From assembly GCA_031288515.1 (NCBI GenBank), contig JAITRG010000066.1, positions 184-64,183 of the forward strand: DNA of 64,000 nucleotides. The letters are read 5' to 3'. This document shows, one piece after another, positions 6,144-24,776 of the stretch (positions within the stretch are counted from its first letter, which is position 1; the number at the start of each line of letters is the position of its first letter). Source of the DNA: Tannerellaceae bacterium (GTDB taxonomy: Bacteria; Bacteroidota; Bacteroidia; Bacteroidales; Tannerellaceae). The position numbers and the translations under genes are program-made. The notes beneath the pieces are model-generated. The model did no database searches. It had not been told where the DNA came from and worked only from the letters and a program-made list of their open reading frames with translations.

Positions 6144-6995
6144 CTATAAATGCTGCGTATATAATGCTGTTTTTCTATATGTTTTAGGAGACACTCCAAC
6201 CATTTTATTAAACAATTTATTGAAATGAGTCATATTATTGAAGGATAGTTCATATGCGATTTCCTTGACGGTCTTCCGGTTAAGGGCCAGCATTAGTTGT
6301 GCCTTTTCTATTTTCCTTTTATTGATGTAGAACAGAGGGGTAATTGCCATTTCTTTTTTGAAGATCCGGGTAAAGTGATCGCTATTCAGATTACAGTACC
6401 GGGCCACTTCATTTATTGTAATATCCTCATAAATATGCTCATGGATATATTGTAAGGCCTTGATAATCCGGATTTCCGAAATATTGTTTTTCGGTTGGGC
6501 CTTATATAGGAATCTTGATAATAATTGAGACAGAATACCCTTTGTTTCCATACTGGCAACTAAATTAGGGCTGCCATCAGATAATCTCTTTGCCAATAAT
6601 TGTGTATTGTCATACGAACGTGGGTCCGACCGTTTTAGTTCCATATTCGGATTGATAGCCAGCAACCTATTGACAAGCAGAGAATCCAATTCGCAAGCTT
6701 CTATTTCAAAAGGAAAAGAGTGTAAGTCAAAAAAATCATACTCGTTGTAAATATGAAAATAATAATGGGTAAAAGTACTATCCGATTCATATCCGTGTGT
6801 AATGAAAGAAGGTATTAAATACAAGTATCCGGGTTGGATGATATGAATGCCATCGGGCATAATTACTTTCGCCACACCGTTTTTTACCACATACAACCGG
6901 GCAAAAGGACTATTTACATTTTTCCAGTTCCAATCGGCATGATGTATTTTGCAGGCGGCATTTAATAATGTGAAATTAAAAGTATCAGGATTCAT
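6144..6995 (-). CDS. AraC-family transcriptional regulator of the PUL
   Basis: Cupin-like N-terminus (WNWKNVNSPFARLY) and double HTH (DHFTRIFKK..IAYELSFNNMTHFNKLFNKMVGVSPKTYR); divergent from the PUL. Confidence 0.93.
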   Translation of the reverse strand: MNPDTFNFTLLNAACKIHHADWNWKNVNSPFARLYVVKNGVAKVIMPDGIHIIQPGYLYLIPSFITHGYESDSTFTHYYFHIYNEYDFFDLHSFPFEIEACELDSLLVNRLLAINPNMELKRSDPRSYDNTQLLAKRLSDGSPNLVASMETKGILSQLLSRFLYKAQPKNNISEIRIIKALQYIHEHIYEDITINEVARYCNLNSDHFTRIFKKEMAITPLFYINKRKIEKAQLMLALNRKTVKEIAYELSFNNMTHFNKLFNKMVGVSPKTYRKTALYTQHL

Positions 6996-7320
6996 AGTTA
7001 GACTGTATTGTAAAAATTTATACTTTCAGTACAGCTCAATCACTTATTATTTGATACTTGCATCAATATTAAACTATTTAGTGACTGACGCTTATCATAC
7101 ATCAAATGTATTGTGATTTTATATCAGATATATTGATGAAAGTATGTTATAAAACATGATGTCGGTTTTTGAATAGTTAATATCAGAAATGGTTATTTTT
7201 TGAAAGTATCACATAGCACACCTTTGCAGAAAAGAAATCAGCAACTTGTATATAAATCTTAGATATAGTTATGGGAGAAACATTCATTCCGGTAAATCAG
7301 GGAAACATACATACTTATTT

Positions 7321-8571
7321 ATGAAACACATATCTAAATATTCGTATCTGTATTTGATATTCAGTTTGTTTTTTATCTGGGCTATCAGCAGTAACCTGTT
7401 GCCGACGATGATACGGCAACTAATGAAAACATTTGAGCTTTCAGCTTTCCGGGGTTCGCTCACGGAAGCGTCTTATTGGATGGCTTATTTCCTGTTCCCG
7501 ATACCCATCGCCATGTTTATGAAGCGTTACAGCTACAAGGCGGGTATTATTGTCGGCTTATTGATTGCCGCTTTGGGCGGCTTGTTGTTTTTTCCGGCCG
7601 CCGCCATTCAACAGTATTGGGCATATCTGGCTATCTTTTTTATTATCGCTATCGGAATGTGTTTTCTGGAAACGGCGGCCAATCCATATGTTACCGTACT
7701 GGGCGATCCGGGAACAGCTTCGCAGCGGCTGAATCTGGCACAATCGTTCAACGGCTTGGGCGCGTTTATTGCTGCCATGTTTTTGAGTAAGCTGGTTTTG
7801 AGCAACAACAATTATTCTCGCGAAACGCTTCCCGCGGATTATCCAGGCGGCTGGGAAGGATTTGTTCAAATTGAAATCGGCGCCATGAAACTGCCATACC
7901 TGATCCTGGCAGTCATATTAATACTGATAGCCGTTGTTTTTATTTTTTCTAGTTTGCCTAAAATCAAGGAAGGCGACCGGGAAGAAGGGAATGTACAAGG
8001 AGAGAAACTGATCGATTTCAGTGTTTTTAGACATTCCAATCTGCGTTGGGGCGTTATCGCCCAGTTTTTCTACAATGGCGGGCAAACATCTATCAACGCC
8101 ATGTTCTTAGTTTATTCCTGTAAATATTTGGACATGACCGAAAGTATGGCAACTACTTTTTTCGGCGTTTATATGCTAGCTTTCCTGCTTGGAAGATGGA
8201 TTGGAACCTTATTGATGGTAAGATTCAGACCGCAGAATATGTTGGTGGCTTACGCTATTACTAACATTATTTTATGCGCTGTGATTGTTTGTTTTGGCGG
8301 CATGATCGGTCTATACGCCATGATTGCCGTATCCTTTTTCATGTCGATTATATATCCGACGCAATTTTCGCTGGCGTTGAAAGGATTGGGTGGTAAAACC
8401 AAAAGCGGATCGGCTTTTCTGGTCATGGCAATTGCAGGTAATGTAATATTACCTCCTATAACCGGTCATATTATGGATATTTTCCCTGAAACCTACTATA
8501 TCGCCTATGTTATTCCACTGGTTAGTTTTGCCGTTTGCGGATATTATGGTTGGAAAGGGTATAAATGTTAG
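7321..8571 (+). CDS. FucP-like MFS sugar:H+ symporter (candidate L-galactose/L-fucose permease)
   Basis: FLETAANPYVTVLG, RLNLAQSFNGLG, LRWGVIAQFFYNGGQ, FMSIIYPTQF; ATG at 7321 preferred over TTG at 7246. Confidence 0.9.
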   Translation: MKHISKYSYLYLIFSLFFIWAISSNLLPTMIRQLMKTFELSAFRGSLTEASYWMAYFLFPIPIAMFMKRYSYKAGIIVGLLIAALGGLLFFPAAAIQQYWAYLAIFFIIAIGMCFLETAANPYVTVLGDPGTASQRLNLAQSFNGLGAFIAAMFLSKLVLSNNNYSRETLPADYPGGWEGFVQIEIGAMKLPYLILAVILILIAVVFIFSSLPKIKEGDREEGNVQGEKLIDFSVFRHSNLRWGVIAQFFYNGGQTSINAMFLVYSCKYLDMTESMATTFFGVYMLAFLLGRWIGTLLMVRFRPQNMLVAYAITNIILCAVIVCFGGMIGLYAMIAVSFFMSIIYPTQFSLALKGLGGKTKSGSAFLVMAIAGNVILPPITGHIMDIFPETYYIAYVIPLVSFAVCGYYGWKGYKC

Positions 8572-8768
8572 AAATAACAATAACAGCGGAAAACAGGAAA
8601 ATGCTGGTTGATTGGATAAAATAGTATTAACAATCTTAAATATTATATTATGAAACATACATGACATGAAAAACATAAATGAGCACTAATTGCATGTTTG
8701 TCATGCGACAAACGCTATTTATTTAGTGATAAAATTAGATAATTATTAACTAAAAGATCGTAGTACAT

Positions 8769-11700
8769 ATGAAAGTATTTTTAATTCTGTTTTGTATTGT
8801 TCCCATCTTCTCATTTGCTTTGGATGTGGATGAAGGAAAGATGCGGGGAAAGGTAGTCGATATGAATGGGGAGCCCCTTGCAGGAGTTGCCATTCATGTG
8901 ACTGGGGGTACTAAAGGGACCATAACAGATTCTAATGGGGCATTTGGAATGGATAATGTTAAGTTAGGAGAAAAATTTACGGTTACTTATCTGGGAATGC
9001 AGGATACCGAGTTTGTGTATCAGGGAAAAGATGTAACGATTGTATTAAAGGAAAAAGAAAATGAATTGGACGAGGTAATCGTGGTCGCTTTCGGCAAGCA
9101 AAAGAAAGAAAGCGTGATTGCATCGGTGATTACGGTCAAGCCTTCCGATTTAAAAGTCCCATCAAGTAATTTGACTACCGCGCTTGCAGGACGGATTTCG
9201 GGACTTATTTCTTATCAACGGAGCGGTGAACCCGGACAGGATAACGCTGACTTTTTTGTACGCGGTATTACCACTTTCGGTAACGGGAAAGCCAATCCGC
9301 TTATCCTTATCGATGGAGTGGAGCTTTCGTCGGAAGACCTGTCGAGACTGAATACTGATGATATTGCTAGCTTTTCTGTTATGAAAGACGCTAACGCAAC
9401 TGCCCTTTACGGAGCGCGGGGTGCGAATGGCGTAATCCTCATTTCGACGAAAGAAGGAACAGAAGGAAAAGTAAAAATATCCGTCCGTGCAGAAGAATCG
9501 TTTTCTATGCCGACACGCAGTATAGAATTTGCCGATCCTGTTACCTACATGAAACTTGGTAATGAAGCGGTTCGCACGCGCAATCCATTGAGCGCGCTTC
9601 CCTATTCGAGCGAGAAGATAGCGCGGACAGGAACCGGAAATCCATACGTTTATCCGGCCACAGACTGGGCTGACCTAATGTTGAAAGACGTTACAAGTAA
9701 TCAGCGGGTAAACGTGAATATGAGTGGAGGAGGAAGTATAGCCAGGTACTACATTGCCGCTTCATATGCTCATGATAGTGGTATCCTAAAAGAAGATAAG
9801 CGTAATGAATTCAATAACAATGTCGATTTGAAAAAATATTTGTTAAGGATGAATTTCAATATAAAAGTGACTCCGACAACCGAAGTTATAGCTCGTCTTC
9901 ATGGCACATTCGATGATTACACAGGGCCTCTCGATGGCGGATCGGGCGTTTATAATAAAATCATGCGTACCAATCCGGTTCTTTTTCCGGCTTATTACGT
10001 ACCGGATACCGCCCATAAATACACCAAACATATCTTGTTTGGAAATTACGGAGGAGGAAATCAATCCTCTAATTTTTACCTTAATCCGTATGCCGACATG
10101 GTAAAAGGTTACAAACAGTATAGCAAAACTCTATTGTTGGCCCAAATGGAACTGAAGCAAGATCTCGGATTCTTGTTAAAAGGTCTTTCCGTGCGTGGAA
10201 TGTTCAATACTACCCGCTATTCGTATTTCGACCTGTGGCGTAATTATAGACCTTATTATTATAATATCGGAAGTTACGACAAGCAAGCCGATACATATAA
10301 GCTGGCACCATTAAATGAAAGAAATGGTACTGAATATATCAGCGAATTTGGCGAAGGAGGGAAGGACATTAACACTACGATTTACTGGGAAGCGGCAGCG
10401 CAGTATAATAATACATTTGCCGAAGATCATGCCGTGAGTGGCCTGTTGGTTTTTACAGGCCGTGAAGAATTGCACGGAAATATTAGGGGGGATTTGCAAA
10501 ATTCGTTTCCATACCGCAACCTTAGCTTGTCGGGACGTTTAACATACGCCTACCGGAACAAATATTTCATTGAAGGTAATTTCGGATACAATGGTTCGGA
10601 ACGGTTTTTCCAAAAAAATACATTTGGCTTTTTCCCTTCAATCGGTGTGGGATACATGCTTTCAAATGAAGAATTTTGGCAACCGTTAGCCAAAACATTC
10701 TCCAAATTAAAGCTGAAAGCCACTTACGGTTTAGTAGGGAATGATGCTATCGGCGATATCAACGACAGGTTTTTCTATTTAGAGAAAGTTTATATCGGCA
10801 ATACCGACCGTGGTTATTCTTTTGGTACGGAAAAAGGATACGGTAACAGCGGGATTAGCATTTCCCGTTACGCGGATCCCGATATAACATGGGAAACGGC
10901 ATATAAACAAAACTATGGAATAGAAATCGGTCTGTTTGATAAGCTGGATTTCCAGATGGATTACTTCAGAGAATATCGTAAAAACATATTAATGGATCGC
11001 GCAGCAGTCCCTACTACAATGGGATTGCAAGCTACTCCGAAAGTTAATATCGGTGAGGCGTTCGGTTCAGGCGTAGATATGTCTCTGGATTATTCACATG
11101 CTGTTAATTCCGACCTTTGGTTTTCATTACGCGGTACTTTTACATACGCCAAGAGCAAATATCACGCATTTGAAGAACCCGCTTATGAAGGGCAACCGTG
11201 GAGGAAACATCTCGGACAGCCTTTGTCACAAACTTATGGGTTGATTGCAGAACGTCTGTTTATCGACGACGATGACGTGTATAATTCCCCTACGCAAATG
11301 TTTGGCGAATATGGTGCCGGCGACATCAAATACAAAGATATTAACATGGACGGGAAGATAGACAATCAGGACTACGTGCCTGTCGGTTATCCTACAACTC
11401 CAGAGATTATTTATGGAGGCGGGTTTTCTCTGGGATACAGAAGTTTTGATCTATCCGCTTTTTTTCAAGGCTCAACTCAGTCGTCTTTTTGGATAAATAA
11501 CGGTAACATTTCTCCATTTTTGGATACGGACGGCGACAATAACGTCAATTCTCAAAACGCTTTATTACAAATCATAGCTGACAGTTACTGGGCAGAAGAC
11601 AACCGTAATCCTCATGCTTTCTGGCCCCGCCTTTCCAATTATGAGATAGAAAATAATACGCAAACCAGTACATGGTGGATGCGCGACGGTGCGTTCCTTC

Positions 11701-11903
11701 GCTTAAAAACTATAGAATTAGGTTATACCGTACCTAAAAAGTGGACGAGTAAGGCACATCTGGCTATGGCTCGCTTTTACATTAGCGGAACTAATCTGCT
11801 GACATGGAGTAAATTCAAATTTTGGGATCCAGAAATGGGAGGAGGAGGATTGAATTATCCGGTTCAGAAAGTATTCAATATAGGTATTAATGTTAACTTA
11901 TAA
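8769..11903 (+). CDS. SusC/RagA-family TonB-dependent transporter
   Basis: RSGEPGQDNADFFVRGITTFG, PLILIDG, KDANATALYGARGANGVILISTK, FLRLKTIELGYT. Confidence 0.97.
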   Translation: MKVFLILFCIVPIFSFALDVDEGKMRGKVVDMNGEPLAGVAIHVTGGTKGTITDSNGAFGMDNVKLGEKFTVTYLGMQDTEFVYQGKDVTIVLKEKENELDEVIVVAFGKQKKESVIASVITVKPSDLKVPSSNLTTALAGRISGLISYQRSGEPGQDNADFFVRGITTFGNGKANPLILIDGVELSSEDLSRLNTDDIASFSVMKDANATALYGARGANGVILISTKEGTEGKVKISVRAEESFSMPTRSIEFADPVTYMKLGNEAVRTRNPLSALPYSSEKIARTGTGNPYVYPATDWADLMLKDVTSNQRVNVNMSGGGSIARYYIAASYAHDSGILKEDKRNEFNNNVDLKKYLLRMNFNIKVTPTTEVIARLHGTFDDYTGPLDGGSGVYNKIMRTNPVLFPAYYVPDTAHKYTKHILFGNYGGGNQSSNFYLNPYADMVKGYKQYSKTLLLAQMELKQDLGFLLKGLSVRGMFNTTRYSYFDLWRNYRPYYYNIGSYDKQADTYKLAPLNERNGTEYISEFGEGGKDINTTIYWEAAAQYNNTFAEDHAVSGLLVFTGREELHGNIRGDLQNSFPYRNLSLSGRLTYAYRNKYFIEGNFGYNGSERFFQKNTFGFFPSIGVGYMLSNEEFWQPLAKTFSKLKLKATYGLVGNDAIGDINDRFFYLEKVYIGNTDRGYSFGTEKGYGNSGISISRYADPDITWETAYKQNYGIEIGLFDKLDFQMDYFREYRKNILMDRAAVPTTMGLQATPKVNIGEAFGSGVDMSLDYSHAVNSDLWFSLRGTFTYAKSKYHAFEEPAYEGQPWRKHLGQPLSQTYGLIAERLFIDDDDVYNSPTQMFGEYGAGDIKYKDINMDGKIDNQDYVPVGYPTTPEIIYGGGFSLGYRSFDLSAFFQGSTQSSFWINNGNISPFLDTDGDNNVNSQNALLQIIADSYWAEDNRNPHAFWPRLSNYEIENNTQTSTWWMRDGAFLRLKTIELGYTVPKKWTSKAHLAMARFYISGTNLLTWSKFKFWDPEMGGGGLNYPVQKVFNIGINVNL

Positions 11904-11930: not shown

Positions 11931-13856
11931 ATGAGAAAAATTATAAGATTAATAACCGGTATATCGTTATCATGCATGTTATTATTCTGTTCATGTAACG
12001 ACTACCTATCCATAGTGCCGGATGATATTCCTTCGATGGAACACGTATTCAACAGCCACACAACTACGGAACAATTTCTTTTTACATGTTATTCTTATTT
12101 ACCCAATCCTGCCGATCTTCTGGCAACGCAGGGCATGATGTCGAGCCGCGAATGTTGGTTCCGTCCCGAAGGATGGTATTGGCTAGCCGGCGACTCCAAC
12201 GGAGGTAATTTTTATACATGGCATATTGCCAGGGGATTGCAAAACTCTAATAACCCATATACAAATTACTGGGATGGAGGACAGGGAGGAATACCATTAT
12301 TCAATGCTATCCGCGACTGCAATATCTTTCTCGAAAACATAGACAATGCTGTCGACGTAGAACCATACGAGAAAAAACGCTGGACTGCCGAGGTGAAATT
12401 CCTGAAAGCTTTTTATCATTATTACCTGATGCGGATGTACGGGCCTATTCCTGTCATCAGAGAGAATATTCCGGTAGGCGCGCTCACCAAAGAAGTACAG
12501 GTATATCGCGAACCGCTTGAAGATGTGGCCAACTACATTGTATCGCTGTTGGATGAAGCCTATTCCGAAAAAGAATTGCCCGCTTCCATCATAAACGAAG
12601 CTGAAGAGCTGGGACGTATTACTAAACCCATTGTTTTGTCCATAAAAGCACAGGTATTGACGTTGATGGCAAGCCCGTTGTTCAATGGTAATCCAACCTA
12701 CCGTAACTTTGCCGACAAACGGGGAATACTTCTCTTTCCTCAAGAGTACAATCCTGACAAATGGCGCGTCGCTGCGGAAGCCCTTAAAGCCGCTATTAAC
12801 TGCGCCGAAAATGAAGATAACAGGAGCTTGTTCCGGTTCGAAGACCCTATGATGCAATTATCGCCGGCTCTTCAACAAGAACTGACAATTAGAGATGCCA
12901 TTACGGAACGGTGGAACAATGAAATTATCTGGGCGTCAACCAAATCCGAAGATATGTTGCAACGTTTGTCTACCGTACCTACCAGTGCTACCGATTCATG
13001 GATGCATGTGGCGGCTGTTTCTCCTACATTGGACGTTGCGGAACTATTTTATACCGATAATGGATTACCTATCCAGGAAGACAAGGAATATCTCATCGCT
13101 TATCCGGACATATACGTCACATCCAAAGCTACGGCGGTGGATGCCGACTATATACGTGAGGGCTTTGAAACCGCGAACCTGCATTTCCACCGCGAACCCC
13201 GTTTCTATGCTTCATTAACGTTCGACGGAGGATACTACTTCGGGAATGGCAATGTGAAGAGAAACATAGATATGAAGTACGGAACAACCGGAGGAAAGAG
13301 AGGCCCGGACAGATATTCCATTACAGGTTATTTCCCTAAGAAACTGGTAAACAGAGAATCGGTATATTCTTCTAATGGATGGACAAGCCATTTTTATACT
13401 TATCCTTATATACGTCTGGCTGATTTATATCTCCTCTATGCCGAAGTCCTGAATGAGGTAAAAGCCACTCCCGACGAAGAGGTATATTATTACATCGATA
13501 AAGTCAGAGAGAGAGCGGGGCTGAAAGGCGTGGAGGAAACATGGAATTCCACGGTATCCATACATCCCGAATATATTGCAAACAAAGACCGCATGAGAGA
13601 TATTATACATCGCGAGCGCCTAATTGAGCTGGCGTTCGAAAATACGCCTTATTGGGATATTCTGAGATGGAAAGAAGGGGAAAAACGCTGGAACGGAACC
13701 GTAAGAGGATGGAATGTCAATGGGAAAAGTACAGACAGTTTCTATAATGTAACGACTATCGGCACAACCTCATTCTCATATAAAGATTATTTAACCCCTA
13801 TCTCTTTAGGTTCCCTGGATAGAAATACCAATCTTGTACAGAATCCGGGATGGTAG
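11931..13856 (+). CDS. SusD/RagB-family lipoprotein
   Basis: Lipobox CSC-NDYLSIVP, IRLADLYLLYAE, RERLIELAFE, terminal LVQNPGW. Confidence 0.96.
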   Translation: MRKIIRLITGISLSCMLLFCSCNDYLSIVPDDIPSMEHVFNSHTTTEQFLFTCYSYLPNPADLLATQGMMSSRECWFRPEGWYWLAGDSNGGNFYTWHIARGLQNSNNPYTNYWDGGQGGIPLFNAIRDCNIFLENIDNAVDVEPYEKKRWTAEVKFLKAFYHYYLMRMYGPIPVIRENIPVGALTKEVQVYREPLEDVANYIVSLLDEAYSEKELPASIINEAEELGRITKPIVLSIKAQVLTLMASPLFNGNPTYRNFADKRGILLFPQEYNPDKWRVAAEALKAAINCAENEDNRSLFRFEDPMMQLSPALQQELTIRDAITERWNNEIIWASTKSEDMLQRLSTVPTSATDSWMHVAAVSPTLDVAELFYTDNGLPIQEDKEYLIAYPDIYVTSKATAVDADYIREGFETANLHFHREPRFYASLTFDGGYYFGNGNVKRNIDMKYGTTGGKRGPDRYSITGYFPKKLVNRESVYSSNGWTSHFYTYPYIRLADLYLLYAEVLNEVKATPDEEVYYYIDKVRERAGLKGVEETWNSTVSIHPEYIANKDRMRDIIHRERLIELAFENTPYWDILRWKEGEKRWNGTVRGWNVNGKSTDSFYNVTTIGTTSFSYKDYLTPISLGSLDRNTNLVQNPGW

Positions 13857-13887: not shown

Positions 13888-15096
13888 ATGAAAAATATAT
13901 TATTCATATTGGTGATTATTCTGTTTGTCGGATTTATAACAGGCTGCAAAGATGATTTTGTGGGACAACCACCGACAGATAGCCAGGCTCCCGCACCAGT
14001 CAGGAATCCGGTAGCGGTAAGTATACCGGGCGGGGCAAAAATTACATACGAACTTCCCGACAACAATGATTTACTTTACGTGAAAGCCGTCTATGTGATT
14101 AACGGTACAGAACGCAACACTTCTGCATCATTCAGCTCAAAAGTCCTCGAAATAAAAGGTTTCGGAACTACGGAATCGCAAACGGTATCGCTATACAGTG
14201 TCGACCGTAGCGGCAATATGTCGGAGCCCGTTAAAGTATCCATTACTCCGGGAACATCGCCGATAAGAATCATCAGTGAATCCATCCGTATGAAGGAAAC
14301 TTTCGGCGGCATTCAGATTACATGGGAAAACGCGAGTAAAGAGAATGTGGCGCTTTATATAGTAGAAATGGGCAAGGACGGGGATATGGACGAGCTGGAT
14401 ATTGCCTTCAGCAATGCGGAAAACGGGAAATACAGTGTGCGCGGATTGGGATCCATCGAACGTGTGTTTGGCGTATATGTACGCGACCGCTGGGACAATA
14501 TTTCGGAAACCCGAACGGCTACTTTAACGCCTTTGGCCGAATACAAGCTGGATAAATCATTGTGGCAAAGGCGAATCATACCAGGAGACAATCCAACCAA
14601 CTCAGGCTTTGGCCCATGGAGTCATATAAAAGACGAGATATGGGAAACGGACAATATATGGGAAACCCTTACATCGATGATACCGATCCTCTTTACCATA
14701 GATTTAGGCGTAACGACTAAATTAAGCCGTTATACATTATGGCAACGGAATGCTGGTTATCAATATAAAAACTCTAATCCGAAACGTTGGAAAATATATG
14801 GAACCGATATATTAAAGGGAAGTGAATCCGATGACTACTGGAAAACCGTAGAGGAAGACGCCGGTTGGAAAAAAGACTGGATATTACTTGGCGATGGTGA
14901 AACGTTTAAACCGTCGGGCGATGGTCCTGTTACACAGGAAGACCTTGAATATGCCTTGCAGGGATATTCATTCGACATGTCGATAGATGCTCCGCCGATA
15001 CGCTATGTCCGTTTTCATGTAACGGATATATGGGAAACGATCGGCTTGTTGCATATTTCGGAACTTTCATTTTGGGGTGCAAGTGCAGAAGAATAA
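13888..15096 (+). CDS. PUL surface lipoprotein (DUF4959/DUF5126/DUF5000-like)
   Basis: Lipobox ITGC, GGAKITYELP..DLLYVKAVY, SVDRSGNMSEP, FTIDLG, C-terminal ISELSFWG. Confidence 0.8.
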   Translation: MKNILFILVIILFVGFITGCKDDFVGQPPTDSQAPAPVRNPVAVSIPGGAKITYELPDNNDLLYVKAVYVINGTERNTSASFSSKVLEIKGFGTTESQTVSLYSVDRSGNMSEPVKVSITPGTSPIRIISESIRMKETFGGIQITWENASKENVALYIVEMGKDGDMDELDIAFSNAENGKYSVRGLGSIERVFGVYVRDRWDNISETRTATLTPLAEYKLDKSLWQRRIIPGDNPTNSGFGPWSHIKDEIWETDNIWETLTSMIPILFTIDLGVTTKLSRYTLWQRNAGYQYKNSNPKRWKIYGTDILKGSESDDYWKTVEEDAGWKKDWILLGDGETFKPSGDGPVTQEDLEYALQGYSFDMSIDAPPIRYVRFHVTDIWETIGLLHISELSFWGASAEE

Positions 15097-15114
15097 AATT
15101 AATAAATCAAATTT

Positions 15115-16254: not shown

Positions 16255-16287
16255 ATGAAAGTGTGTCTATTTATGACACACTTTCAT
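16255..16287 (+). terminator. Perfect 13-bp stem-loop between the lipoprotein genes and the hydrolases
   Basis: ATGAAAGTGTGTC-TATTTAT-GACACACTTTCAT followed by TTT. Confidence 0.6.
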
Positions 16288-16304: not shown

Positions 16305-19109
16305 ATGAATAAAGCCTTTAAACTTTTACTTCTATTTATATTCACAGGTTTCGCTGCAATTTGCGACGGGAAAGGTACAAACACGATTTTCGTACAGGAT
16401 CTAACCTGCGAATATCTGGTCGATCCGCTCGGAATAGATGTTCCCCAGCCCCGTTTTGCATGGAAGATAGTACAGACCGGTAAAGCAAAGAAAGGACAAT
16501 TACAAACTGCTTACCAAATTCTGATAGCCTCTTCTTCCGAAAAATTAGCGGAAAATGAAGGTGATATCTGGAACAGCGAAAAAGTACAGTCCGGACAGTC
16601 CGTTCATATAACATATAATGGTAAACCGCTCGAAAGTATGCAGCAATGCTGGTGGAAAGTAAAAATCTGGAATAACTACGGCGAAGTTACCTCTTGGAGC
16701 AACTCCGCCCGCTTCGGAGTGGGAATTCTTCAACCTTCGGGCTGGAAAGGACAATGGATTGGCGACAAACCCGATCTCAAGTTGAAGGAATACGTGGAAT
16801 ATGTGGACGCGCACCACACTAAAAAGGAGGATGGCTATGACGCTAAAATAGTGGAAAACCCGCCCTTACTTCCTTCTCCTTTGCTGCGAAAATCGTTTTC
16901 CGTTACCGGCAGTGTCAAAAGCGCTCTGCTCTATGTATCTTCGCTCGGCTATAACGAGATTTTCTTCAACGGAGAACGTATCGGCGATCATCAACTGGCA
17001 CCCGAATGGACTGACTATTACCGACGTGTTCAGTATCAGGTATATGACTTAACCGCTCAGGTCGCTTCCGGGACAAATGCCCTTGCTGCTGTTCTGGCAG
17101 ATGGCTGGTACCTTGGCGAACTGGGGCCTGTACGGTGGAGGTGGAGTCAAGAATTCCCGTTTCGCGGATTCTATGGTCTCGACCGCCGTTTAATTGCCCA
17201 ACTCTGTATCGTATATTCCGATGGTTCCAGACAGATAATATCCACTGACGGCTCATGGAAGATCAATCCCGACGGATATATCCGTACTGCTGATAACTTT
17301 GTAGGGCAAACTATTGACGCCCGCAAAATTATTTCCGGATGGAATCTTCCCGGTTTTGACGATTCATCTTGGGCAAACGCATATGTGGATAATAGCGTTG
17401 ATAAAAACCTCGAAGCCCAGAAAAACGAACCCATCCGCATTCATCGAGAACTTAAACCGATAAAAATAAACGCGTGGAAAGACAAGTATATCGTCAATTT
17501 CGGACAAAATATCGCTGGTTGGTGCGCCTTGAAAATCAAAGGAAAAGCTGGAACAGTAGTTACACTTCGCCATGGAGAATGGCTCAACAATGACGGCAGC
17601 ATTTATACTTACGGACTAGGACAAGCTAAACAAACCGACGTATTCATTCTTTCGGGAGGCGATGATTGTTTTGAACCCCGTTTTACATATCACGGTTTCC
17701 AGTATGTAGAAATATCCGGCTTGGACGAAAAGCCGGCAGCCGACATGATTGTCGCCCGAGCCGTATCATCCGATCCGGAGGTAACAGGAACTTTCGAATG
17801 TTCTAACCCCAAGCTTAACCGATTATTTGCCAATATCCTTTGGACCCAGCGTAACAACATGCACAGCGTCCCAACCGATTGCCCGCAACGCGATGAACGT
17901 TGTGGCTGGCTGGGCGATGCACAGGTTTTTTGCCAAAATAGCATTTTTAATATGAATATGGCGGCATTTTATACCAAGTTCACGAAAGATCTGTGCGACG
18001 CGGTTGCCCCGAACGGACAATTTTACAGCATCGTACCGTCCGTCAGGCATGGAAATTTCGGAGTGGACTGGTACGGGGGGCCCGCTTGGGCCGATGCCGG
18101 TGTGATCATCCCATGGCGTGTTTATGAAAATTATGGCGACCGGCGAATATTGGAAGAACATTACGTAGTTATGAAACACTACATAGAATCCATTCTTTCG
18201 GAAAATCCTGATTATCTCTGGAAAGAGAAACACGCCAATTATAATGACTGGCTGAATGCCAACACATTTTCGAATCCGCCTGAAGAATACAATACGACAA
18301 GAGGCGGCATGCCTGACGATGTTTTCAATACGGCATTCTTCGCCCATTCGGCACACCTGCTATCGGAAATCGCAACGATACTCGGTAATAAAGATGATGC
18401 GGCCCTGTACACTGATTTAAGGAATAAAATAGCCGCCGCTTTCGTGAAGAATTTTGTGGACGAAAACGGAGTTGTTGAGGGTAATTCGCAGGGAGCTTAT
18501 GCTATCGCCTTGCATTTCGATCTCCTGCCGGAAAACCTACAAGTCAAGGCTTTTGAAAATTTATTGAAATGCATTGAAGAATACGATTATCGAATCTCTA
18601 CCGGATTTGTAACCACGCCTATGATGATGAAAGAACTTGTCCGCAGGGGACGCGCTGACATTGCGTACAAATTTCTTGAATCAGAACGTTTTCCATCATG
18701 GATTTATGCCGTCAACCAAGGTGCAACGACTGTTTGGGAACGTTGGGACGCTTATGTGAAAGGACGCGGGATCAATCCGTCTGATATGAATTCGTTCAAT
18801 CATTATTCCATCGGGTCTGTAGGTGAATGGATTTATCGCAATGTACTTGGTATCAATCCCGACATCAAGCATCCAGGTTATGAGCATTTCACGATTCGTC
18901 CGCTCTTGGGCGGTACGCTGGTTTGGGCAAAAGGTTCATACAATTCCATATATGGCGAAATTGCCGTTTCGTGGAAAATCGAAGGAAATTCATTTATACT
19001 TAATGTAAAAATCCCGGTCAATACAACGGCGACTGTAGTTTTACCCAATAATGAAACAAAAGAAACCGGTTCGGGAGAATATACATTTAAATTAAGAATT
19101 AAGAGTTAA
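16305..19109 (+). CDS. GH78 alpha-L-rhamnosidase
   Basis: DPLGIDVPQPRFAW, SVPTDCPQRDERCGWLGD, ATTVWERWD, MNSFNHYSIG. Confidence 0.93.
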   Translation: MNKAFKLLLLFIFTGFAAICDGKGTNTIFVQDLTCEYLVDPLGIDVPQPRFAWKIVQTGKAKKGQLQTAYQILIASSSEKLAENEGDIWNSEKVQSGQSVHITYNGKPLESMQQCWWKVKIWNNYGEVTSWSNSARFGVGILQPSGWKGQWIGDKPDLKLKEYVEYVDAHHTKKEDGYDAKIVENPPLLPSPLLRKSFSVTGSVKSALLYVSSLGYNEIFFNGERIGDHQLAPEWTDYYRRVQYQVYDLTAQVASGTNALAAVLADGWYLGELGPVRWRWSQEFPFRGFYGLDRRLIAQLCIVYSDGSRQIISTDGSWKINPDGYIRTADNFVGQTIDARKIISGWNLPGFDDSSWANAYVDNSVDKNLEAQKNEPIRIHRELKPIKINAWKDKYIVNFGQNIAGWCALKIKGKAGTVVTLRHGEWLNNDGSIYTYGLGQAKQTDVFILSGGDDCFEPRFTYHGFQYVEISGLDEKPAADMIVARAVSSDPEVTGTFECSNPKLNRLFANILWTQRNNMHSVPTDCPQRDERCGWLGDAQVFCQNSIFNMNMAAFYTKFTKDLCDAVAPNGQFYSIVPSVRHGNFGVDWYGGPAWADAGVIIPWRVYENYGDRRILEEHYVVMKHYIESILSENPDYLWKEKHANYNDWLNANTFSNPPEEYNTTRGGMPDDVFNTAFFAHSAHLLSEIATILGNKDDAALYTDLRNKIAAAFVKNFVDENGVVEGNSQGAYAIALHFDLLPENLQVKAFENLLKCIEEYDYRISTGFVTTPMMMKELVRRGRADIAYKFLESERFPSWIYAVNQGATTVWERWDAYVKGRGINPSDMNSFNHYSIGSVGEWIYRNVLGINPDIKHPGYEHFTIRPLLGGTLVWAKGSYNSIYGEIAVSWKIEGNSFILNVKIPVNTTATVVLPNNETKETGSGEYTFKLRIKS

Positions 19110-19165: not shown

Positions 19166-19237
19166 CCTCCGGCTGAAGCTGGAGGATAAGAAATAATTCA
19201 GTAAAAGGCTTTAGCTAAAATGATTTCGACTAAAGGC
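19166..19237. repeat. Degenerate REP-like palindromes
   Basis: CCTCCGGC-TGAA-GCTGGAGG (19166-19185) and GGCTTTAGCT...GACTAAAGGC (19207-19237). Confidence 0.4.
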
Positions 19238-19346
19238 ATTTGCTTTCTAAATCTTTATCCATAACTTGAAAGTCGTGATAGCTAATATGCTTTGAGATAA
19301 TCCTTTATACTTTTATTGTATATAAAGTCTATTAAAAATTTAAAAT

Positions 19347-20921
19347 ATGATGATACAAAAGAATTTTTTTTGCATTTGTTTTTTTGCCATTTTTCTAATG
19401 GTGTGCAATGGAGTATCCGGACAGGAAACAAGAAAAAAAGAGGCTCCGGCAGATATTTTCAATCAATTTCAAGTCCCGCAATGGTTCAAGGACGCCAAAT
19501 TCGGATTATGGTTGCACTGGGGGCCTCAATCTATTCCCGCAAAAGGCGGCGGTTGGTATGCCCGCCACATGTACGCGCACGGCGAAGACCTGACCGATGG
19601 CTGGGGTAGTGACGCATGGCCCTATCATAGGGAAACCTACGGACACCAGTCAGAATTTGGCTATAAAGATATTATCAACCTATGGAAAGCGGAAAAATTC
19701 GATGCGGATGCCACGATGAAGCAGTTTAAGAGATGGGGTGCGCGTTATGCCGCCATTATCGGGCAGCATCACGACAATTACGATTTATTCTATTCGCCGG
19801 TGCATCAGTGGAACGCCGTCAATGTTGGCCCCAAGCGCGATATATTAGGTGAGTTTGCCACCGCTGCCCGCAAGTACGGACTGAAATGGGCGGCTACTTC
19901 ACATGGCTATTGGGCGAATTGGTGGTATAAACCGGCATTCAGTTGCGATAAGGAAGGTCCGAAAAAAGGAGTATCTTATGATGGAAACCTGACTAAAGTT
20001 GATGGTATCGGACAATGGTGGGAAGGATTAGACCCGCAACAATTGTATGCGCACAAATATCCCGATTTTGAGAAAGAGTTAAATATCCGCCTAATGGATT
20101 TAGTGAAAAATTACCGACCTGATATATTGTATTTCGACAATAATGATATTCCGGCTCCGGCTGTTGCAGCCTGTGAATATTTATACAAACAGAGCTTGGA
20201 CAGAGAAGGACATATCCAAACTATTGTTACCGTCAAAAAGCCACAGCAAGGAACTGTCCTTGATTTTGAAAAAGGCATTGCCGATGGCATTATGAACGAA
20301 TACTGGCAAACAGACACCTCTTTGAATGGAGCCTGGTTTATCAAGCCGAACGACGGGAAAGGAAGCGTTGTAGAAAGTTCATCTTCCGGCGAACTGCGTC
20401 ACAATGCTCGCACGCTGGAAGAGTTGTTTGTCGATATTATCAGCAAGCGGGGCGTACTCCTGTTAAATCTTCCTATTTATCCGGACGGCAGTATTCCCCA
20501 AGAACAAATAAATATCATGGATGAGTTCGGAAGTTGGATTAACGCGAACGGTGAAGCTATTTTTGCATCCGAACCTTGGAAGGTTTATGGTAAAGGCGGC
20601 GAAGCTGCCGGAGGACATTTTAATGAGCGTACAGTAACGTCCCAACCTTGGGACGAAAACATCTATCGTTTTACCTGTAATAAGGATAAAAAGACTTTGT
20701 ACGTTCATATCTTCGGTAATCCATCAGGGAAAAAAATCGTAATCAGCGAATTAGCCGACAAGGAATTATTCAATGGTCAGGTGAAAAAAGTGTTTATGGT
20801 ATCGGGTAAAAAATCCGTTCGATATAAAATGACGCCCGAAGGATTATCCGTTATAATGCCCGACAAACTGGATTTCCCGAATTGTAATGTCTTAAAAATT
20901 ACGACGACTGGACTATGGTAA
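19347..20921 (+). CDS. GH29 alpha-L-fucosidase family enzyme (candidate alpha-L-galactosidase)
   Basis: PQWFKDAKFGLWLHWGPQS, HHDNYDL, NVGPKRDI, PDILYFD (nucleophile motif). Confidence 0.88.
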   Translation: MMIQKNFFCICFFAIFLMVCNGVSGQETRKKEAPADIFNQFQVPQWFKDAKFGLWLHWGPQSIPAKGGGWYARHMYAHGEDLTDGWGSDAWPYHRETYGHQSEFGYKDIINLWKAEKFDADATMKQFKRWGARYAAIIGQHHDNYDLFYSPVHQWNAVNVGPKRDILGEFATAARKYGLKWAATSHGYWANWWYKPAFSCDKEGPKKGVSYDGNLTKVDGIGQWWEGLDPQQLYAHKYPDFEKELNIRLMDLVKNYRPDILYFDNNDIPAPAVAACEYLYKQSLDREGHIQTIVTVKKPQQGTVLDFEKGIADGIMNEYWQTDTSLNGAWFIKPNDGKGSVVESSSSGELRHNARTLEELFVDIISKRGVLLLNLPIYPDGSIPQEQINIMDEFGSWINANGEAIFASEPWKVYGKGGEAAGGHFNERTVTSQPWDENIYRFTCNKDKKTLYVHIFGNPSGKKIVISELADKELFNGQVKKVFMVSGKKSVRYKMTPEGLSVIMPDKLDFPNCNVLKITTTGLW

Positions 20922-21958
20922 AGCAGATAAACCGGCTGCTTTGGATAGCAGGCATTGTTTTTTTATGTAGCTGCTCTTCCAATAAGTATTTAAGCCATCG
21001 GGCGGTTCAAATTTTTGAACCGCCCGCCGGTAAATGTTTGGTGTTTATCGGACAGGATTTAGGTGCAGTGGGCGGCTTACCCGGTTACAGCGACGGTTAT
21101 TGCGATGCTTTCGCAACTCCGGCAGGAGTAACGGTGTATCTGGGCTTGAATCCCGGTGGAAAGGTGTTGGGACTGATGGATACCGCCAATTGGGGTTCGG
21201 GCGATTGCTGCGCCAATCAATACGCCGAAGCCAAACGATTTGACGGCGTGATGATTGCCGTAGGCTTGGCTATTGTCGGGCAGGAAACCAATATCGTTCA
21301 AGGCAAATTGGACGGTAATCTTGGTGAAATTTCGTTGTGGATAAAGCAGTTATCCCCGCGTCCGGTATTCCTTCGTATCGGTTACGAATTTGACGGCCAC
21401 GACTGGAACCATTACCAACCGGAAACGTATATTGCTGCGTACCGTTACATAAAAAATTTCATCGACAATCAGGGAATTAACAACGTCGCATACGTTTGGC
21501 AGTCGAAAGGCTGGGGAACACCTTTAACCGATTACGATAAATGGTACCCAGGCGATGAATATGTCGATTGGTACGGTTATTCCTATTTCAACGATCCCGA
21601 CGATGTGATGATACGTTTTGCCCGCACACACGGCAAACCTGTAATTATTGCCGAAGCAACGCCAACACTCCGGGAAAACGGCAAGTTTATCGACGCAGAC
21701 CTTAAAAAGGATGAGGTCGCCCGCGCGATGTGGGATAAATGGTTTACGCCGTTTTTTAATACAATCGAAAATAATGCGGATGTTATCAAAGCCTTTTCGT
21801 ACATTAATGTCGATTGGTATACGCAACGGATGTGGGTAAATGATGCCATTTTTAATCAATGTGATTCCCGTATTCAGAAAAACGGTTATATCAGCAAGAA
21901 ATGGGCGGATAAAATGAAACGGTTGCAGTATATCGTAAAACAAAATAGGAAACCATAA
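20915..21958 (+). CDS. GH26 lipoprotein glycoside hydrolase, beta-1,3-xylanase-like
   Basis: Lipobox LCSC, VFIGQD, LRIGYEFDG (acid/base), YVWQS, DWYGYSYF, KPVIIAEATP (nucleophile). Confidence 0.75.
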   Translation: MVKQINRLLWIAGIVFLCSCSSNKYLSHRAVQIFEPPAGKCLVFIGQDLGAVGGLPGYSDGYCDAFATPAGVTVYLGLNPGGKVLGLMDTANWGSGDCCANQYAEAKRFDGVMIAVGLAIVGQETNIVQGKLDGNLGEISLWIKQLSPRPVFLRIGYEFDGHDWNHYQPETYIAAYRYIKNFIDNQGINNVAYVWQSKGWGTPLTDYDKWYPGDEYVDWYGYSYFNDPDDVMIRFARTHGKPVIIAEATPTLRENGKFIDADLKKDEVARAMWDKWFTPFFNTIENNADVIKAFSYINVDWYTQRMWVNDAIFNQCDSRIQKNGYISKKWADKMKRLQYIVKQNRKP

Positions 21959-22229
21959 TTTCATTTTATAGTTACGTGTTTATGAATAGATTGATTATAA
22001 CATCTGCCTTGGTCTTTTCAAGCCGTAGAACTGGTGGAGTGAGGCGCTTCACGGAGTGGCTCGGGCAGGTTTGTCCACTGTATTTCCTCAATCGATATGT
22101 AACGGCGGCGATTCGATGAAGAGATTCGCGGTAGTTTCAGTGCGGCGGCGCTCCAAACCCTGCCTGAGAAAGGATAAGTTACGGTAATACACGGCATAAC
22201 CAAAGGCTATTTTCTGGAAATAGCTGCCG

Positions 22230-22355
22230 ATGGCGTTAATACAGGAAAAGAACTGAGTCGCTGGTTATTCCCGAAACAAATACGATTGACGGACGGTATA
22301 TCTGGCTGCCAATCTGCCTTGAGGGCAGCAACCCGTTATTGAATGGAAAGATAAG
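22230..22355 (+). pseudogene. Remnant resembling the C-terminus of a GH43 (galactanase-like) enzyme
   Basis: Broken frames give ..RW..PK.TIDGRYIWLPICLEGSNP and IEWKDK, similar to the DGRYIWLPI...IEWKDKW end of Bacteroidetes GH43 proteins. Confidence 0.4.
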
Positions 22356-22402
22356 AGGCAATTATAAGAGAAATTAAACAATTTAAATAAAAAGGATATA
22401 AT

Positions 22403-23335
22403 ATGGAATACAGAGAAATAGGAAAAACAGGAATGAAAGTATCTAGCCTTAGTTTTGGAGCCTCATCGCTTGGCGGCGTTTTCCATTCCGTCAGGGAGGA
22501 AGACGGCATTGAAGCCGTATATACAGCCATAGACCATGGTATAAACTTTATAGATGTGTCTCCTTACTATGGACATCTAAAAGCCGAAATAGTATTGGGT
22601 AAGGCATTAAAGAATATCGACCGAAAAAAGTATTACTTATCTACAAAAGTTGGACGTTACGGCAAAGATGGAAGAAATTGCTGGGATTACACGGCAAAAA
22701 AGGCAGTTGAAAGCGTATATGAAAGCATCGAACGGCTGAATGTCGATTATATTGACCTGATTAATGTACATGATATTGAATTTGCCGATTTGGAAACAAT
22801 TTGTAATGAAACACTTCCCACTCTTGTCGAATTACGGACAAAAGGTGTTGTTAAACACGTTGGAATCACCAATCTGACACTGCGCCATTTCCGATATGTT
22901 ATCGACCATGTTCCGGCTGGAACTGTGGAAAGCATACTGTCATTCTGCCATTACTGTCTCAACGATGATGCGCTGGTTGATTACCTCGATTATTTTGAAA
23001 AGAAAAGTATTGGCGTTATCAACGCTTCGCCTTTTTCGATGGGCCTTTTGACCGGACGTGGCGCTCCGGATTGGCATCCGGCGCCCAAACCTTTACAGGA
23101 TTTATGCCGGAAAGCGGTGGAGTATTGCAAATCGAAAGGAAAGGAAATAGAGCCGCTAGCTGTAAAATATTCGGTTTCAAATCCGCTCATTGCGACAACC
23201 TTGTTCAGCACTGCCCGTCCCGAAGCCGTTTTGAAAAATATAGAATGGGCTGAAAAAGATTTGGATAAGGATTTGTTGCAGGAGGTACAGGCAATATTGG
23301 AGCCACGTTTCAGGGATACATGGCTGAACAGTTAA
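22403..23335 (+). CDS. Aldo/keto reductase, L-galactose dehydrogenase-like
   Basis: LSFGASSLGGVF, FIDVSPYYG, LSTKVGRYG, INVHDIEF, INASPFSMGLLT.RG.P.WHPA. Confidence 0.85.
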   Translation: MEYREIGKTGMKVSSLSFGASSLGGVFHSVREEDGIEAVYTAIDHGINFIDVSPYYGHLKAEIVLGKALKNIDRKKYYLSTKVGRYGKDGRNCWDYTAKKAVESVYESIERLNVDYIDLINVHDIEFADLETICNETLPTLVELRTKGVVKHVGITNLTLRHFRYVIDHVPAGTVESILSFCHYCLNDDALVDYLDYFEKKSIGVINASPFSMGLLTGRGAPDWHPAPKPLQDLCRKAVEYCKSKGKEIEPLAVKYSVSNPLIATTLFSTARPEAVLKNIEWAEKDLDKDLLQEVQAILEPRFRDTWLNS

Positions 23336-23349
23336 TATTAGAATAAGTC

Positions 23350-23751
23350 ATGGAAAATAAAGAATCAGGCTATATTTCGAAACAATATGGTTTCCCGACA
23401 AAAAGATATTGTCAGGCGCTTGATCTGAAGGATGACCCTCAATTAATAGAAGAATATGTCAAGCGGCATAGCGAAAAAGAACATTGGGAGATAATCCGAA
23501 ATGGAATCAGAGAAGTCGGGATCCTGGAAATGGAAATCTATCTTTATGAAAACCATCTGTTTATGATTGTGGAAACACCGTTGGATTTTAGTTGGACGGA
23601 AGCCTTCTCAAAACTGGCGACATTACCTAAACAATCCGAATGGGAAACATATATGTCAGCTTCTCAAGATGCAAAGGAAGATGCAGCATCAAACGAAAAA
23701 TGGCAACTGATGGAACAGATTTTTAAATTATATGAAACTAATGGAAAGTGA
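23350..23751 (+). CDS. L-rhamnose mutarotase-family protein
   Basis: KRYCQALDLKDDPQLIEEY..H, GIREVGILEMEIY, QSEWETYMS. Confidence 0.88.
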   Translation: MENKESGYISKQYGFPTKRYCQALDLKDDPQLIEEYVKRHSEKEHWEIIRNGIREVGILEMEIYLYENHLFMIVETPLDFSWTEAFSKLATLPKQSEWETYMSASQDAKEDAASNEKWQLMEQIFKLYETNGK

Positions 23752-23759
23752 ATAATACA

Positions 23760-24776
23760 ATGAAAGCAGTTGTAATATTAAAAGAAAGAGAAGTTTCAGT
23801 CATTGAGCGGGAAAAACCCGTGTTGAAACAGGGTGAAGCGTTAATAAAAATAAAATATGCAGGATTTTGCGGATCGGATTTGAATACATTTCTTGGTAAA
23901 AATCCGATGGTAAAACTACCCGTTATACCGGGACATGAAATCGGCGCAATTGTCGAAACTGTAACTGACGGCGTTCCTGAAACCATTCAATCCGGAATGC
24001 CATGCACCGTCAACCCTTATACAAGCTGCGGATATTGCTCATCCTGCCGTAACGGGCGTCCAAACGCTTGCCGGTTCAATCAGACATTCGGCGTACAGCG
24101 CGACGGCGCCATGAGCGAATACATCGCTGTTCCTTGGGAGAAGGTGATTGCAGGCAAAGGTATAAGTCCAAAGGATTTTGCGCTGGTCGAACCGATGAGC
24201 GTAGGTTTTCACTCCGTTTCGCGTGCAGGCATCACCGACCTTGACAGAGTGCTGGTTATTGGTTGCGGCATGATAGGCATAGGCGCGGTTGTACGTGCCG
24301 TCCTGCGTGGAGCCGAAGTAATCGCGATGGATGTCGATGATGAAAAGCTGAATCTGGCGAAACGGCTGGGAGCTTCATATACAATTAACTCAAAAACCGA
24401 AGATGTACATGCCCGCTTGCAGGAATTGACCGGAGGCAACGGTGCGGATATTGTTATTGAGGCGGTCGGATCTCCGGTTACCTATCAAGTAGCAGTAAAC
24501 GAGGTTGCATTTACAGGTCGTGTAGTTTGTATCGGTTACGCCAAAAGCGAGGTATCCTTTGAAACGAAATATTTTGTCCAGAAAGAACTTGATATATGCG
24601 GCTCCCGGAATGCCATGCCCGAAGATTTCCGTGCCGTAATGGAATACTTGAAACGGGGGACATGTCCTGTCGATGAACTCATTAGCGGAGTTTATAAGCC
24701 GGAACAGGCGCAACTGGCTTTGGAAGAATGGGCCAGGAATCCGGGAAAAGTATTCAGAATTTTAATTGCTTTCTAA
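23760..24776 (+). CDS. Zn-dependent dehydrogenase, L-galactonate 5-dehydrogenase-like
   Basis: GFCGSD, GHEIG, structural-Zn CGYCSSC..C, VIGCGMIG, GSRNAMPEDF. Confidence 0.85.
   Translation: MKAVVILKEREVSVIEREKPVLKQGEALIKIKYAGFCGSDLNTFLGKNPMVKLPVIPGHEIGAIVETVTDGVPETIQSGMPCTVNPYTSCGYCSSCRNGRPNACRFNQTFGVQRDGAMSEYIAVPWEKVIAGKGISPKDFALVEPMSVGFHSVSRAGITDLDRVLVIGCGMIGIGAVVRAVLRGAEVIAMDVDDEKLNLAKRLGASYTINSKTEDVHARLQELTGGNGADIVIEAVGSPVTYQVAVNEVAFTGRVVCIGYAKSEVSFETKYFVQKELDICGSRNAMPEDFRAVMEYLKRGTCPVDELISGVYKPEQAQLALEEWARNPGKVFRILIAF

Follow-up and report, generated by a model that had tools for sequence, protein, structure and literature searches.

A small polysaccharide utilization module probably nested within a predicted L-galactose catabolic cluster on a Tannerellaceae contig

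Here we describe a twelve-gene locus at positions 6144-24776 of a 64,000-nucleotide stretch of DNA from a Tannerellaceae bacterium (assembly GCA_031288515.1, contig JAITRG010000066.1, positions 184 to 64,183; G000:C15:184-64183 in our analysis, and hereafter the window), in which predicted genes for the uptake and degradation of a glycan stand among predicted genes for the catabolism of L-galactose. We consider it probable, without being secure, that the locus is one unit under the control of an AraC-family regulator, with a small polysaccharide utilization locus (PUL) module set into an L-galactose cluster, between its transporter gene and its enzyme genes. The underlying route, predicted to run from L-galactose via its lactone and L-galactonate to D-tagaturonate, is well supported by homology and synteny.

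Genes were called from a listing of open reading frames (ORFs) together with Pfam and NCBIfam scans, and every gene of the locus named in an earlier note on this DNA was recovered in its place.

6144-6995, minus strand: AraC-family regulator (Pfam HTH_18/HTH_AraC), divergent from the FucP gene
7246-8571, plus strand: FucP-type major facilitator superfamily (MFS) permease (TIGR00885, 334 bits, cut-off 280)
8769-11903, plus strand: SusC-like TonB-dependent transporter (Pfam Plug and CarbopepD_reg_2)
11931-13856, plus strand: SusD-like lipoprotein (SusD_RagB, 182 bits; SusD-like_3)
13888-15096, plus strand: predicted surface glycan-binding lipoprotein 1 (Pfam DUF4959-DUF5126-DUF5000)
15115-16233, plus strand: predicted surface glycan-binding lipoprotein 2 (Pfam DUF4998 and F5/8 type C)
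16305-19109, plus strand: glycoside hydrolase (GH) family 78 alpha-L-rhamnosidase (five GH78 Pfam domains)
19347-20921, plus strand: GH29 glycosidase (Pfam Alpha_L_fucos, 239 bits)
20915-21958, plus strand: GH26-like lipoprotein (Pfam GH26, 37.6 bits)
22403-23335, plus strand: aldo/keto reductase (AKR), a predicted cytoplasmic L-galactose 1-dehydrogenase (match to PDB 7LH6)
23350-23751, plus strand: RhaM-family mutarotase (Pfam rhaM, 90.5 bits)
23748-24776, plus strand: Zn-dependent dehydrogenase, a predicted L-galactonate 5-dehydrogenase (ADH_N/ADH_zinc_N)

None of the twelve ORFs is broken, and everything from FucP through to the Zn-dehydrogenase gene is read from the plus strand; in the FucP gene, an internal ATG about 25 codons in is the probable real start. 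The gene positions bear out the proposal that the catabolic genes enclose SusC/D, GH78, GH29 and GH26, and add to the locus the two genes for glycan-binding-type lipoproteins (13888-16233), which the earlier note had not named. Features typical of a PUL are present in the form of an adjacent SusC/SusD pair and three co-located glycoside hydrolases with signal or lipoprotein N-termini. Lipoprotein-type N-termini were found in SusD, in both binding proteins (in which the lipoprotein cysteine is followed by acidic residues) and in the GH26-like enzyme, and signal peptides in GH78 and GH29, whereas the AKR, the RhaM-family protein and the Zn-dehydrogenase carry no export signal. These localisation signals fit the model of a PUL nested within a catabolic cluster.

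The assignment of the catabolic genes begins with the AKR, whose top five PDB matches are all titled L-galactose dehydrogenase (7LH6, 9W6Y, 7EZI, 7SMI and 8SCC). The alignment with 7LH6 scores 460 bits and is ungapped over residues 1-310, and that with 9W6Y scores 343 bits, so that its prediction as an L-galactose dehydrogenase orthologue is well supported. Scanning one genome per species, we obtained 562 relatives of the AKR and analysed the best 80; neighbourhoods were counted at the 46 loci whose flanks reached 5 kb or more in both directions, a gene being scored if it lay no more than 8 kb from the AKR. This revealed a Zn-dehydrogenase in 44 of the 46 loci and, because of this, the association of the two genes is not due to chance. 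An Amidohydro_2 lactonase, whose family identity was confirmed, was found in 43 of the loci, a FucP-type permease in 22, and a RhaM-like gene in 14, where it is found next to the AKR and Zn-dehydrogenase genes or between the two (Phocaeicola plebeius included). GH29 (13/46), AraC (12/46, usually divergent from the AKR), GH78 (7/46) and UxaB (4/46) were found less often. In P. plebeius (L075) the order is AraC (on the opposite strand), GH29, RhaM, AKR, lactonase, FucP and Zn-dehydrogenase, and we take the stretch from AKR through lactonase and FucP to Zn-dehydrogenase to match the gene order of Phocaeicola vulgatus BVU_0219-0222.

The remaining catabolic genes of the window behave in the same way. 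The Zn-dehydrogenase is 66% identical to the enzyme of the P. plebeius cluster and aligns with E. coli LgoD at 35% identity (E = 2e-60) with the Zn-ligand motifs in register, and is predicted to convert L-galactonate to D-tagaturonate. The FucP-type permease, the predicted inner-membrane importer of L-galactose, is 67-82% identical to FucP genes inside L-galactose clusters (82% to that of Dysgonomonas sp. 216) and only 33-35% identical to the other FucP-like genes of the metagenome-assembled genome (MAG). The AraC protein aligns along its whole length, at 47% identity, with the one encoded beside a second L-galactose cluster of the MAG, on contig C65; its identity to AraC proteins whose genes diverge from the AKR gene in other loci is 45-48%. 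The RhaM-family protein is predicted to interconvert the anomers of L-galactose, which is the substrate we infer for it. Overall, the L-galactose proteins of the window are closest to those of Dysgonomonas loci (75-83% identity), and the AKR is 82-83% identical to its best matches among the 80 cluster genes compared. We considered whether the AKR might belong to a separate paralogue clade with another function, and rejected this, as in the AKR tree the window copy nests among Dysgonomonas and Bacteroides sequences with canonical, lactonase-bearing clusters.

The earlier note had named an L-fucose route as the main alternative, and homology disfavours it, leaving it a small share of the probability. 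Under this alternative, which we regard as very unlikely, the locus would serve L-fucose or a mixture of 6-deoxy-L-sugars, GH29 would be a fucosidase, FucP would import L-fucose, and the AKR and Zn-dehydrogenase would oxidise it or another L-sugar. It is consistent with the FucP protein passing the L-fucose permease model TIGR00885, with GH29 being mostly a fucosidase family in which the cluster around the alpha-L-galactosidase BpGH29 is not isofunctional, and with the presence of an AKR in a xyloglucan-type PUL of another genome (L009), where L-fucose is the usual terminal sugar. The nearest solved relatives of the AKR, however, are all L-galactose dehydrogenases, and the oxidative route known for L-fucose requires an L-fuconate dehydratase and enzymes for keto-deoxy-fuconate, none of which is encoded in the locus. 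We know of no route in which a 5-dehydrogenase acts on L-fuconate, which also counts against it, and the MAG has a separate pair of FucI and FucP genes on contig C187, although that contig may come from another organism.

If the locus does act as a single L-galactose unit, the glycan would be bound at the cell surface by SusD and the two surface lipoproteins and cleaved by the GH26-like lipoprotein, the fragments being imported by SusC. In the periplasm, GH78 would free alpha-L-rhamnose, and GH29 alpha-L-galactose and/or alpha-L-fucose. L-galactose would then enter the cytoplasm via the FucP-type permease, have its anomers equilibrated by the RhaM-family mutarotase and be oxidised by the AKR to L-galactono-1,5-lactone, a step assigned by homology to solved L-galactose dehydrogenases. 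The lactone would be opened by a lactonase encoded elsewhere than in the locus, and the Zn-dehydrogenase, by synteny with the Phocaeicola-type cluster, would convert L-galactonate to D-tagaturonate for the UxaB/UxaA hexuronate route. AraC would probably sense L-galactose or a pathway intermediate and turn on the whole unit.

Much of this resembles systems that are already known. Three enzymes of the P. vulgatus L-galactose pathway, BVU_0219, BVU_0220 and BVU_0222, are reported to have been characterised (Hobbs et al. 2014, as cited in PMC12632266). Like the route predicted for the window, this pathway uses an AKR-type L-galactose dehydrogenase and a Zn-dependent L-galactonate dehydrogenase that yields D-tagaturonate, and its P. 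plebeius version has genes for a FucP-type permease, a RhaM-like protein, AraC and GH29 alongside. Unlike the P. vulgatus system, the window has no cog3618/Amidohydro_2 lactonase, and its locus holds a 13-kb block of SusC, SusD, surface glycan-binding protein (SGBP), GH78, GH29 and GH26 genes between FucP and AKR, and is an insert flanked by direct repeats. In the E. coli LgoT/LgoR/LgoD system (b4356-b4358), LgoD belongs to the same superfamily as the Zn-dehydrogenase and its product likewise passes to UxaB/UxaA, but the system starts from L-galactonate with no L-galactose dehydrogenase, uses a transporter of another family and another regulator, and has no glycan-degrading genes. The porphyran PUL of P. 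plebeius, like the window locus, is a PUL with a GH29 gene (BpGH29, which frees L-galactose and to which the window GH29 is only distantly related), but the locus has no sulfatases or GH16/GH86/GH2 enzymes, and in P. plebeius the L-galactose catabolic genes lie outside that PUL. Finally, the lgu pathway of Luteolibacter LG18 for L-glucose and L-galactose converges on D-tagaturonate, and its LguA clusters phylogenetically with BVU_0219 and plant L-galactose dehydrogenases (PMC12632266); the lgu cluster differs from the window locus in being Verrucomicrobial, in its other downstream enzymes and in having no link to a PUL.

Links between a PUL and L-galactose catabolism were found elsewhere among the AKR loci, the catabolic genes having become part of SusC/D loci on several occasions. 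A Paludibacter MAG (L051, 567-11415) and Proteiniphilum sp. X52 (L059, 4093-14936) carry compact mini-PULs in the order AraC (on the opposite strand), SusC, SusD, AKR, Zn-dehydrogenase, lactonase, RhaM and GH29, and a further Proteiniphilum locus (L063, 2-7220) has a similar, or permuted, gene content. L051 also carries a back-to-back set of SusC, SusD, DUF4959-type and DUF4998 genes resembling that of the window. Like the window locus, these mini-PULs are co-directional units in which AraC and a SusC/D pair are joined to L-galactose genes; unlike it, they have kept the lactonase, have a GH29 that is closely BpGH29-like and SusC/D in place of FucP, and are without GH78, GH26 and the two SGBP genes. 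A looser case is the locus of Dysgonomonas sp. 521 (L009, 2014-20838), in which AraC and an AKR-RhaM-GH97-GH29 series (the GH29 being BpGH29-like) accompany SusC/D, an SGBP-B xyloglucan-binding-domain protein, GH43, GH2 and GH3, with no Zn-dehydrogenase or lactonase nearby; this gives a hint that L-galactose-bearing side chains of xyloglucan may be a source of the sugar. The recurrence of SusC/D-coupled clusters in other lineages argues for functional coupling, and the joining of PUL and L-galactose genes in the window is therefore probably functionally meaningful. Our literature searches found no published description of SusC/D-coupled L-galactose mini-PULs.

Two of the three glycoside hydrolases can be placed with respect to solved enzymes. 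GH78 matches SaRha78A (PDB 3W5M) at 640 bits and resembles exo-rhamnosidases of that kind. The GH26-like protein aligns with the beta-1,3-xylanase structure 2DDX (141 bits over residues 38-340) and with AlXyn26A (94 bits), and with mannanases at no more than 24 bits, which by sequence puts it with the beta-1,3-xylanases of GH26 and not with the mannanases; it is the sole candidate for an endo-acting enzyme in the locus. Its gene is rare, as only 10 genomes among 401 searched from the order carry it, and its nearest genomic homologues (43-48% identity; G026) adjoin genes for a GH43 beta-xylosidase and a sugar transporter. Together with GH29, these enzymes imply a target glycan containing L-rhamnose, L-galactose and/or L-fucose, and beta-linked xylose. 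Of the claim of a dedicated locus for an L-galactose-containing glycan, the part that holds is the joining of a PUL to an L-galactose-type route.

A number of observations weigh against the reading of the locus as one L-galactose unit, and they concern GH29, the lactonase, transcription and the distribution of the locus as a whole. The best PDB match of the window GH29 is 7SNK/7LJJ at 246 bits, the next best scoring 149 bits, and the aligned motifs include those that we take to hold the catalytic Asp and Glu. The two proteins are, however, only about one-third identical. 7SNK/7LJJ is the exo-alpha-L-galactosidase BpGH29 (PMC12316285), and the sequence-similarity cluster of BpGH29 contains fucosidases (PMC11189522). 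Close homologues of the window GH29 (60-76% identity) come from termite-gut metagenomes, and no L-galactose genes lie beside them in the three contexts examined. The GH29 customary in L-galactose clusters is of another, closely BpGH29-like type, to which the GH29 of the C65 cluster belongs: it scores 658 bits against BpGH29, has homologues at 72-78% identity in L009, L051, L059, L047, L020 and L015, and is 29% identical to the window GH29. The proposal that the window GH29 is an alpha-L-galactosidase thus retains BpGH29 as its best solved match, but a distant one, and from its sequence the enzyme may be an alpha-L-galactosidase, a fucosidase or both.

The lactonase is a more direct difficulty. 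When the window was searched by tblastn with two lactonases, the best match reached only E = 0.25, and no lactonase remnant was found in the gap between the GH26-like and AKR genes by tblastn, six-frame translation, blastn or Rfam. The only PF04909/Amidohydro_2 gene of the MAG is on contig C65, so that, in the window locus, hydrolysis of L-galactono-lactone would need to be spontaneous or supplied from elsewhere. In Dysgonomonas-type clusters (for example L022 and L041) the lactonase and FucP genes follow the Zn-dehydrogenase, and the right junction of the insert that carries the window locus coincides with the lactonase position of related clusters. The L-galactose route proposed in the earlier note is thus upheld by homology and synteny for the AKR, Zn-dehydrogenase, FucP, RhaM and AraC, and is incomplete for want of the lactonase. 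The window does encode a seven-bladed propeller lactonase (PF10282, 50792-51940, 357 bits), beside genes of glycogen metabolism; we considered it as a cytoplasmic substitute and judged this unlikely, given its lipoprotein-type signal and its glycogen-gene neighbourhood.

The C65 contig holds a second, complete L-galactose cluster (L100, G000:C65, 1988-8880), in which AraC2 is divergent from AKR2, a second Zn-dehydrogenase (ZnADH2), the lactonase, a UxaB paralogue and GH29, with no transporter or mutarotase gene. Identities to the window proteins are 75% for AKR2, 68% for ZnADH2 and 65% for the UxaB paralogue, and the C65 proteins are closest to those of Tannerella and Parabacteroides loci. We had considered that its lactonase might help in trans within one genome, and downgraded this to uncertain, since the window contig (C15) is phylogenetically discordant with the MAG. 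The galK gene of C15 shows no more than 74% DNA identity to genomes of the same genus, its protein having its best match within the family (85%) in another genus, whereas a second galK on contig C223 is 94% identical to that of a relative, G475. Likewise, the C65 cluster and G475 are collinear, with 86% identity, and the UxaC region of the window reaches only 73-74% against the same relatives. Genes duplicated in the assembly comprise galK, the glycogen synthase/debranching region, feoB, uxaC, uxaB, the AKR and the Zn-dehydrogenase; second copies of C15 genes lie on contigs C223, C312, C94, C63 and C65. Probably, therefore, C15 either was mis-binned from a related organism or is a large block of foreign DNA, and the C65 lactonase cannot be claimed to serve the window locus. 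By the same token, the FucI and FucP genes on C187, UxaA on C63 and RhaA on C83 may not be of the window's host. One further AraC in the assembly (L102, G000:C131, 7396-15964) is 56% identical to that of the window and divergent from genes for an MFS permease, an HpcH-type aldolase, an enolase-superfamily dehydratase, a 348-residue AKR and GFO/IDH/MocA oxidoreductases. Such a gene set has the look of a non-phosphorylative route for deoxy-sugar acids of the L-rhamnonate or L-fuconate type.

With regard to transcription, AraC, which is cytoplasmic, is the only regulator of the locus, in which no hybrid two-component system, SusR or pair of extracytoplasmic function (ECF) sigma and anti-sigma factors was found; a dedicated glycan sensor is usual in PULs and not obligatory. 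Two non-coding features bear on its control.

7121-7210, plus strand: candidate operator in the AraC/FucP intergenic region, two copies of ATATCAGAnAT...TGAAAGTAT
21959-22402, no strand: non-coding gap of 445 bp between the GH26-like and AKR genes, relatively GC-rich

The full pair of operator motifs occurs in the window only at 7121-7146 and 7180-7210, and the repeats may be binding sites, the pairing being interpretive, as both half-motifs also match at other, scattered places in the window. Searches upstream of the AKR, SusC and GH29 genes found no such motif. The gaps inside the predicted co-transcribed unit measure 198, 238 and 445 bp, and the longest of them contains no ORF, Rfam hit or protein or DNA similarity except for a weak 92-bp match to contig C138. 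The 445-bp gap and the lack of an operator-like motif at the AKR together weaken the predicted co-transcription of the unit. Between the genes for the second binding protein and GH78 there is a hairpin with a 13-bp stem and a T-rich tail (16255-16287), which could be an internal attenuator; internal attenuators are common after susC/D-SGBP genes. Finally, a search for the locus as a whole in 80 family genomes, and for the GH26-like gene in the 401 order genomes, brought up no more than separate pieces of it.

The surroundings of the locus indicate how it may have come to its present position, since it forms an 18.7-kb insert bracketed by imperfect direct repeats of about 350 bp.

5716-6078, no strand: left direct repeat copy (blastn), holding the first ~93 codons and upstream region of an HU/SPOR gene
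24791-26663, no strand: right direct repeat copy (blastn), split by a frameshifted IS110

By blastn, 5716-6031 matches 24791-25105 at 96.5% identity, and the repeat continues past the frameshifted IS110 (transposase domains at 25142-26339) with a match of 6022-6061 to 26624-26663 at 95%. An 11-nucleotide match, TATTCCGCCCT, starting at 6068 and at 39947, extends it further, and a 13.3-kb block, bounded by IS982 ends in inverted orientation, precedes this continuation at about 39947. A stretch of 15 bp separates the stop codon of the Zn-dehydrogenase from the right copy. The GC content of the insert is 0.424, compared with 0.469 for the left flank, and the 18.7-kb unit has probably been assembled recently and acquired laterally. 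Just to the right of the repeat and insertion-sequence block, genes for a tyrosine integrase, a D5/primase-helicase-like protein and a DUF6371/Zn-ribbon protein (40203-46059) look like a small integrative element, and no third att-like repeat was found near it.

These junctions, with the right one falling so close to the Zn-dehydrogenase gene, the missing lactonase and the adjacent IS110, IS982 and integrase, are also what would be expected had a foreign PUL block, from SusC to GH26, entered an L-galactose cluster by landing in it or by recombination, with each part regulated and used separately. The catabolic part would then be a partly disabled remnant, and the PUL would serve for some beta-xylan-like glycan with rhamnosyl or fucosyl decorations and no connection to L-galactose. 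We regard such a mosaic as unlikely yet worth taking seriously. It gains from the 445-bp gap and strong hairpin (16255-16287) inside the unit, from the confinement of the operator-like repeats to the FucP promoter, from the uniqueness of the locus among the 80 family genomes and the 401 order genomes (the latter searched for the GH26-like gene) and from the unrelated contexts of the homologues of the window GH29. Against it, the twelve ORFs are intact and co-directional with no second regulator among them, SusC/D-coupled L-galactose clusters have arisen repeatedly in other lineages, and the L-galactose proteins of the window are still 75-83% identical to those of complete clusters. We continue to prefer a single, AraC-controlled unit.

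The structure of the insert also changes how its neighbours to the left should be read.

1430-2836, minus strand: UxaC, left of the locus
3021-4463, plus strand: UxaB, tagaturonate reductase (NF002969, 646 bits), outside the insert

The earlier note had suggested that the route would feed the neighbouring UxaB. The end of UxaB does lie 1,680 bp from the AraC gene, close to the ~1.7 kb it gave, and the biochemical link is sound, but the adjacency is weak, since two unrelated genes (an FHA-domain gene and the HU/SPOR gene) and the left direct repeat, which is a recombination junction, lie between UxaB and the locus. Given this structure, the proximity of UxaB is weak evidence for functional linkage and probably incidental, a result of where the insert landed. 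UxaB is embedded in the C65 cluster as well as in 4 of the 46 related clusters, which echoes the biochemical link between the pathway and UxaB. Among the contigs of the MAG, UxaA was found on C63 only, and C63 may not share a host with C15.

A bolder version of the one-unit reading, which we think distinctly improbable, would make the locus a laterally mobile PUL with an L-galactose-responsive AraC, serving an undescribed glycan in which alpha-L-galactose and alpha-L-rhamnose decorate a beta-1,3-xylan-like chain in a termite-gut-type community. The window GH29 would then represent a new subgroup acting as an alpha-L-galactosidase, and the RhaM-family protein would be the first L-galactose mutarotase. 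If this were true, the locus, with L051, L059, L063 and L009, would define an unrecognised class of Bacteroidales L-galactose PULs.

L-galactose is a rare sugar, found in rhamnogalacturonan II, in some xyloglucans and grass xylans, in galactans of red algae and in a small number of animal glycans, and we know of a single characterised pathway for it from gut bacteria. What is new here is the arrangement, an unusual predicted operon architecture with its regulatory logic; the parts and the chemistry were already known, and the gain is in this sense incremental. The locus does offer concrete candidates for enzymology in the GH29 variants, the RhaM-family mutarotase and the beta-1,3-xylanase-like GH26. 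Taken together, our comparisons suggest that L-galactose genes stand repeatedly in SusC/D loci of Bacteroidales from insect guts, digesters and sediments, and such wiring would make L-galactose-bearing glycans a regular nutrient niche for these bacteria.

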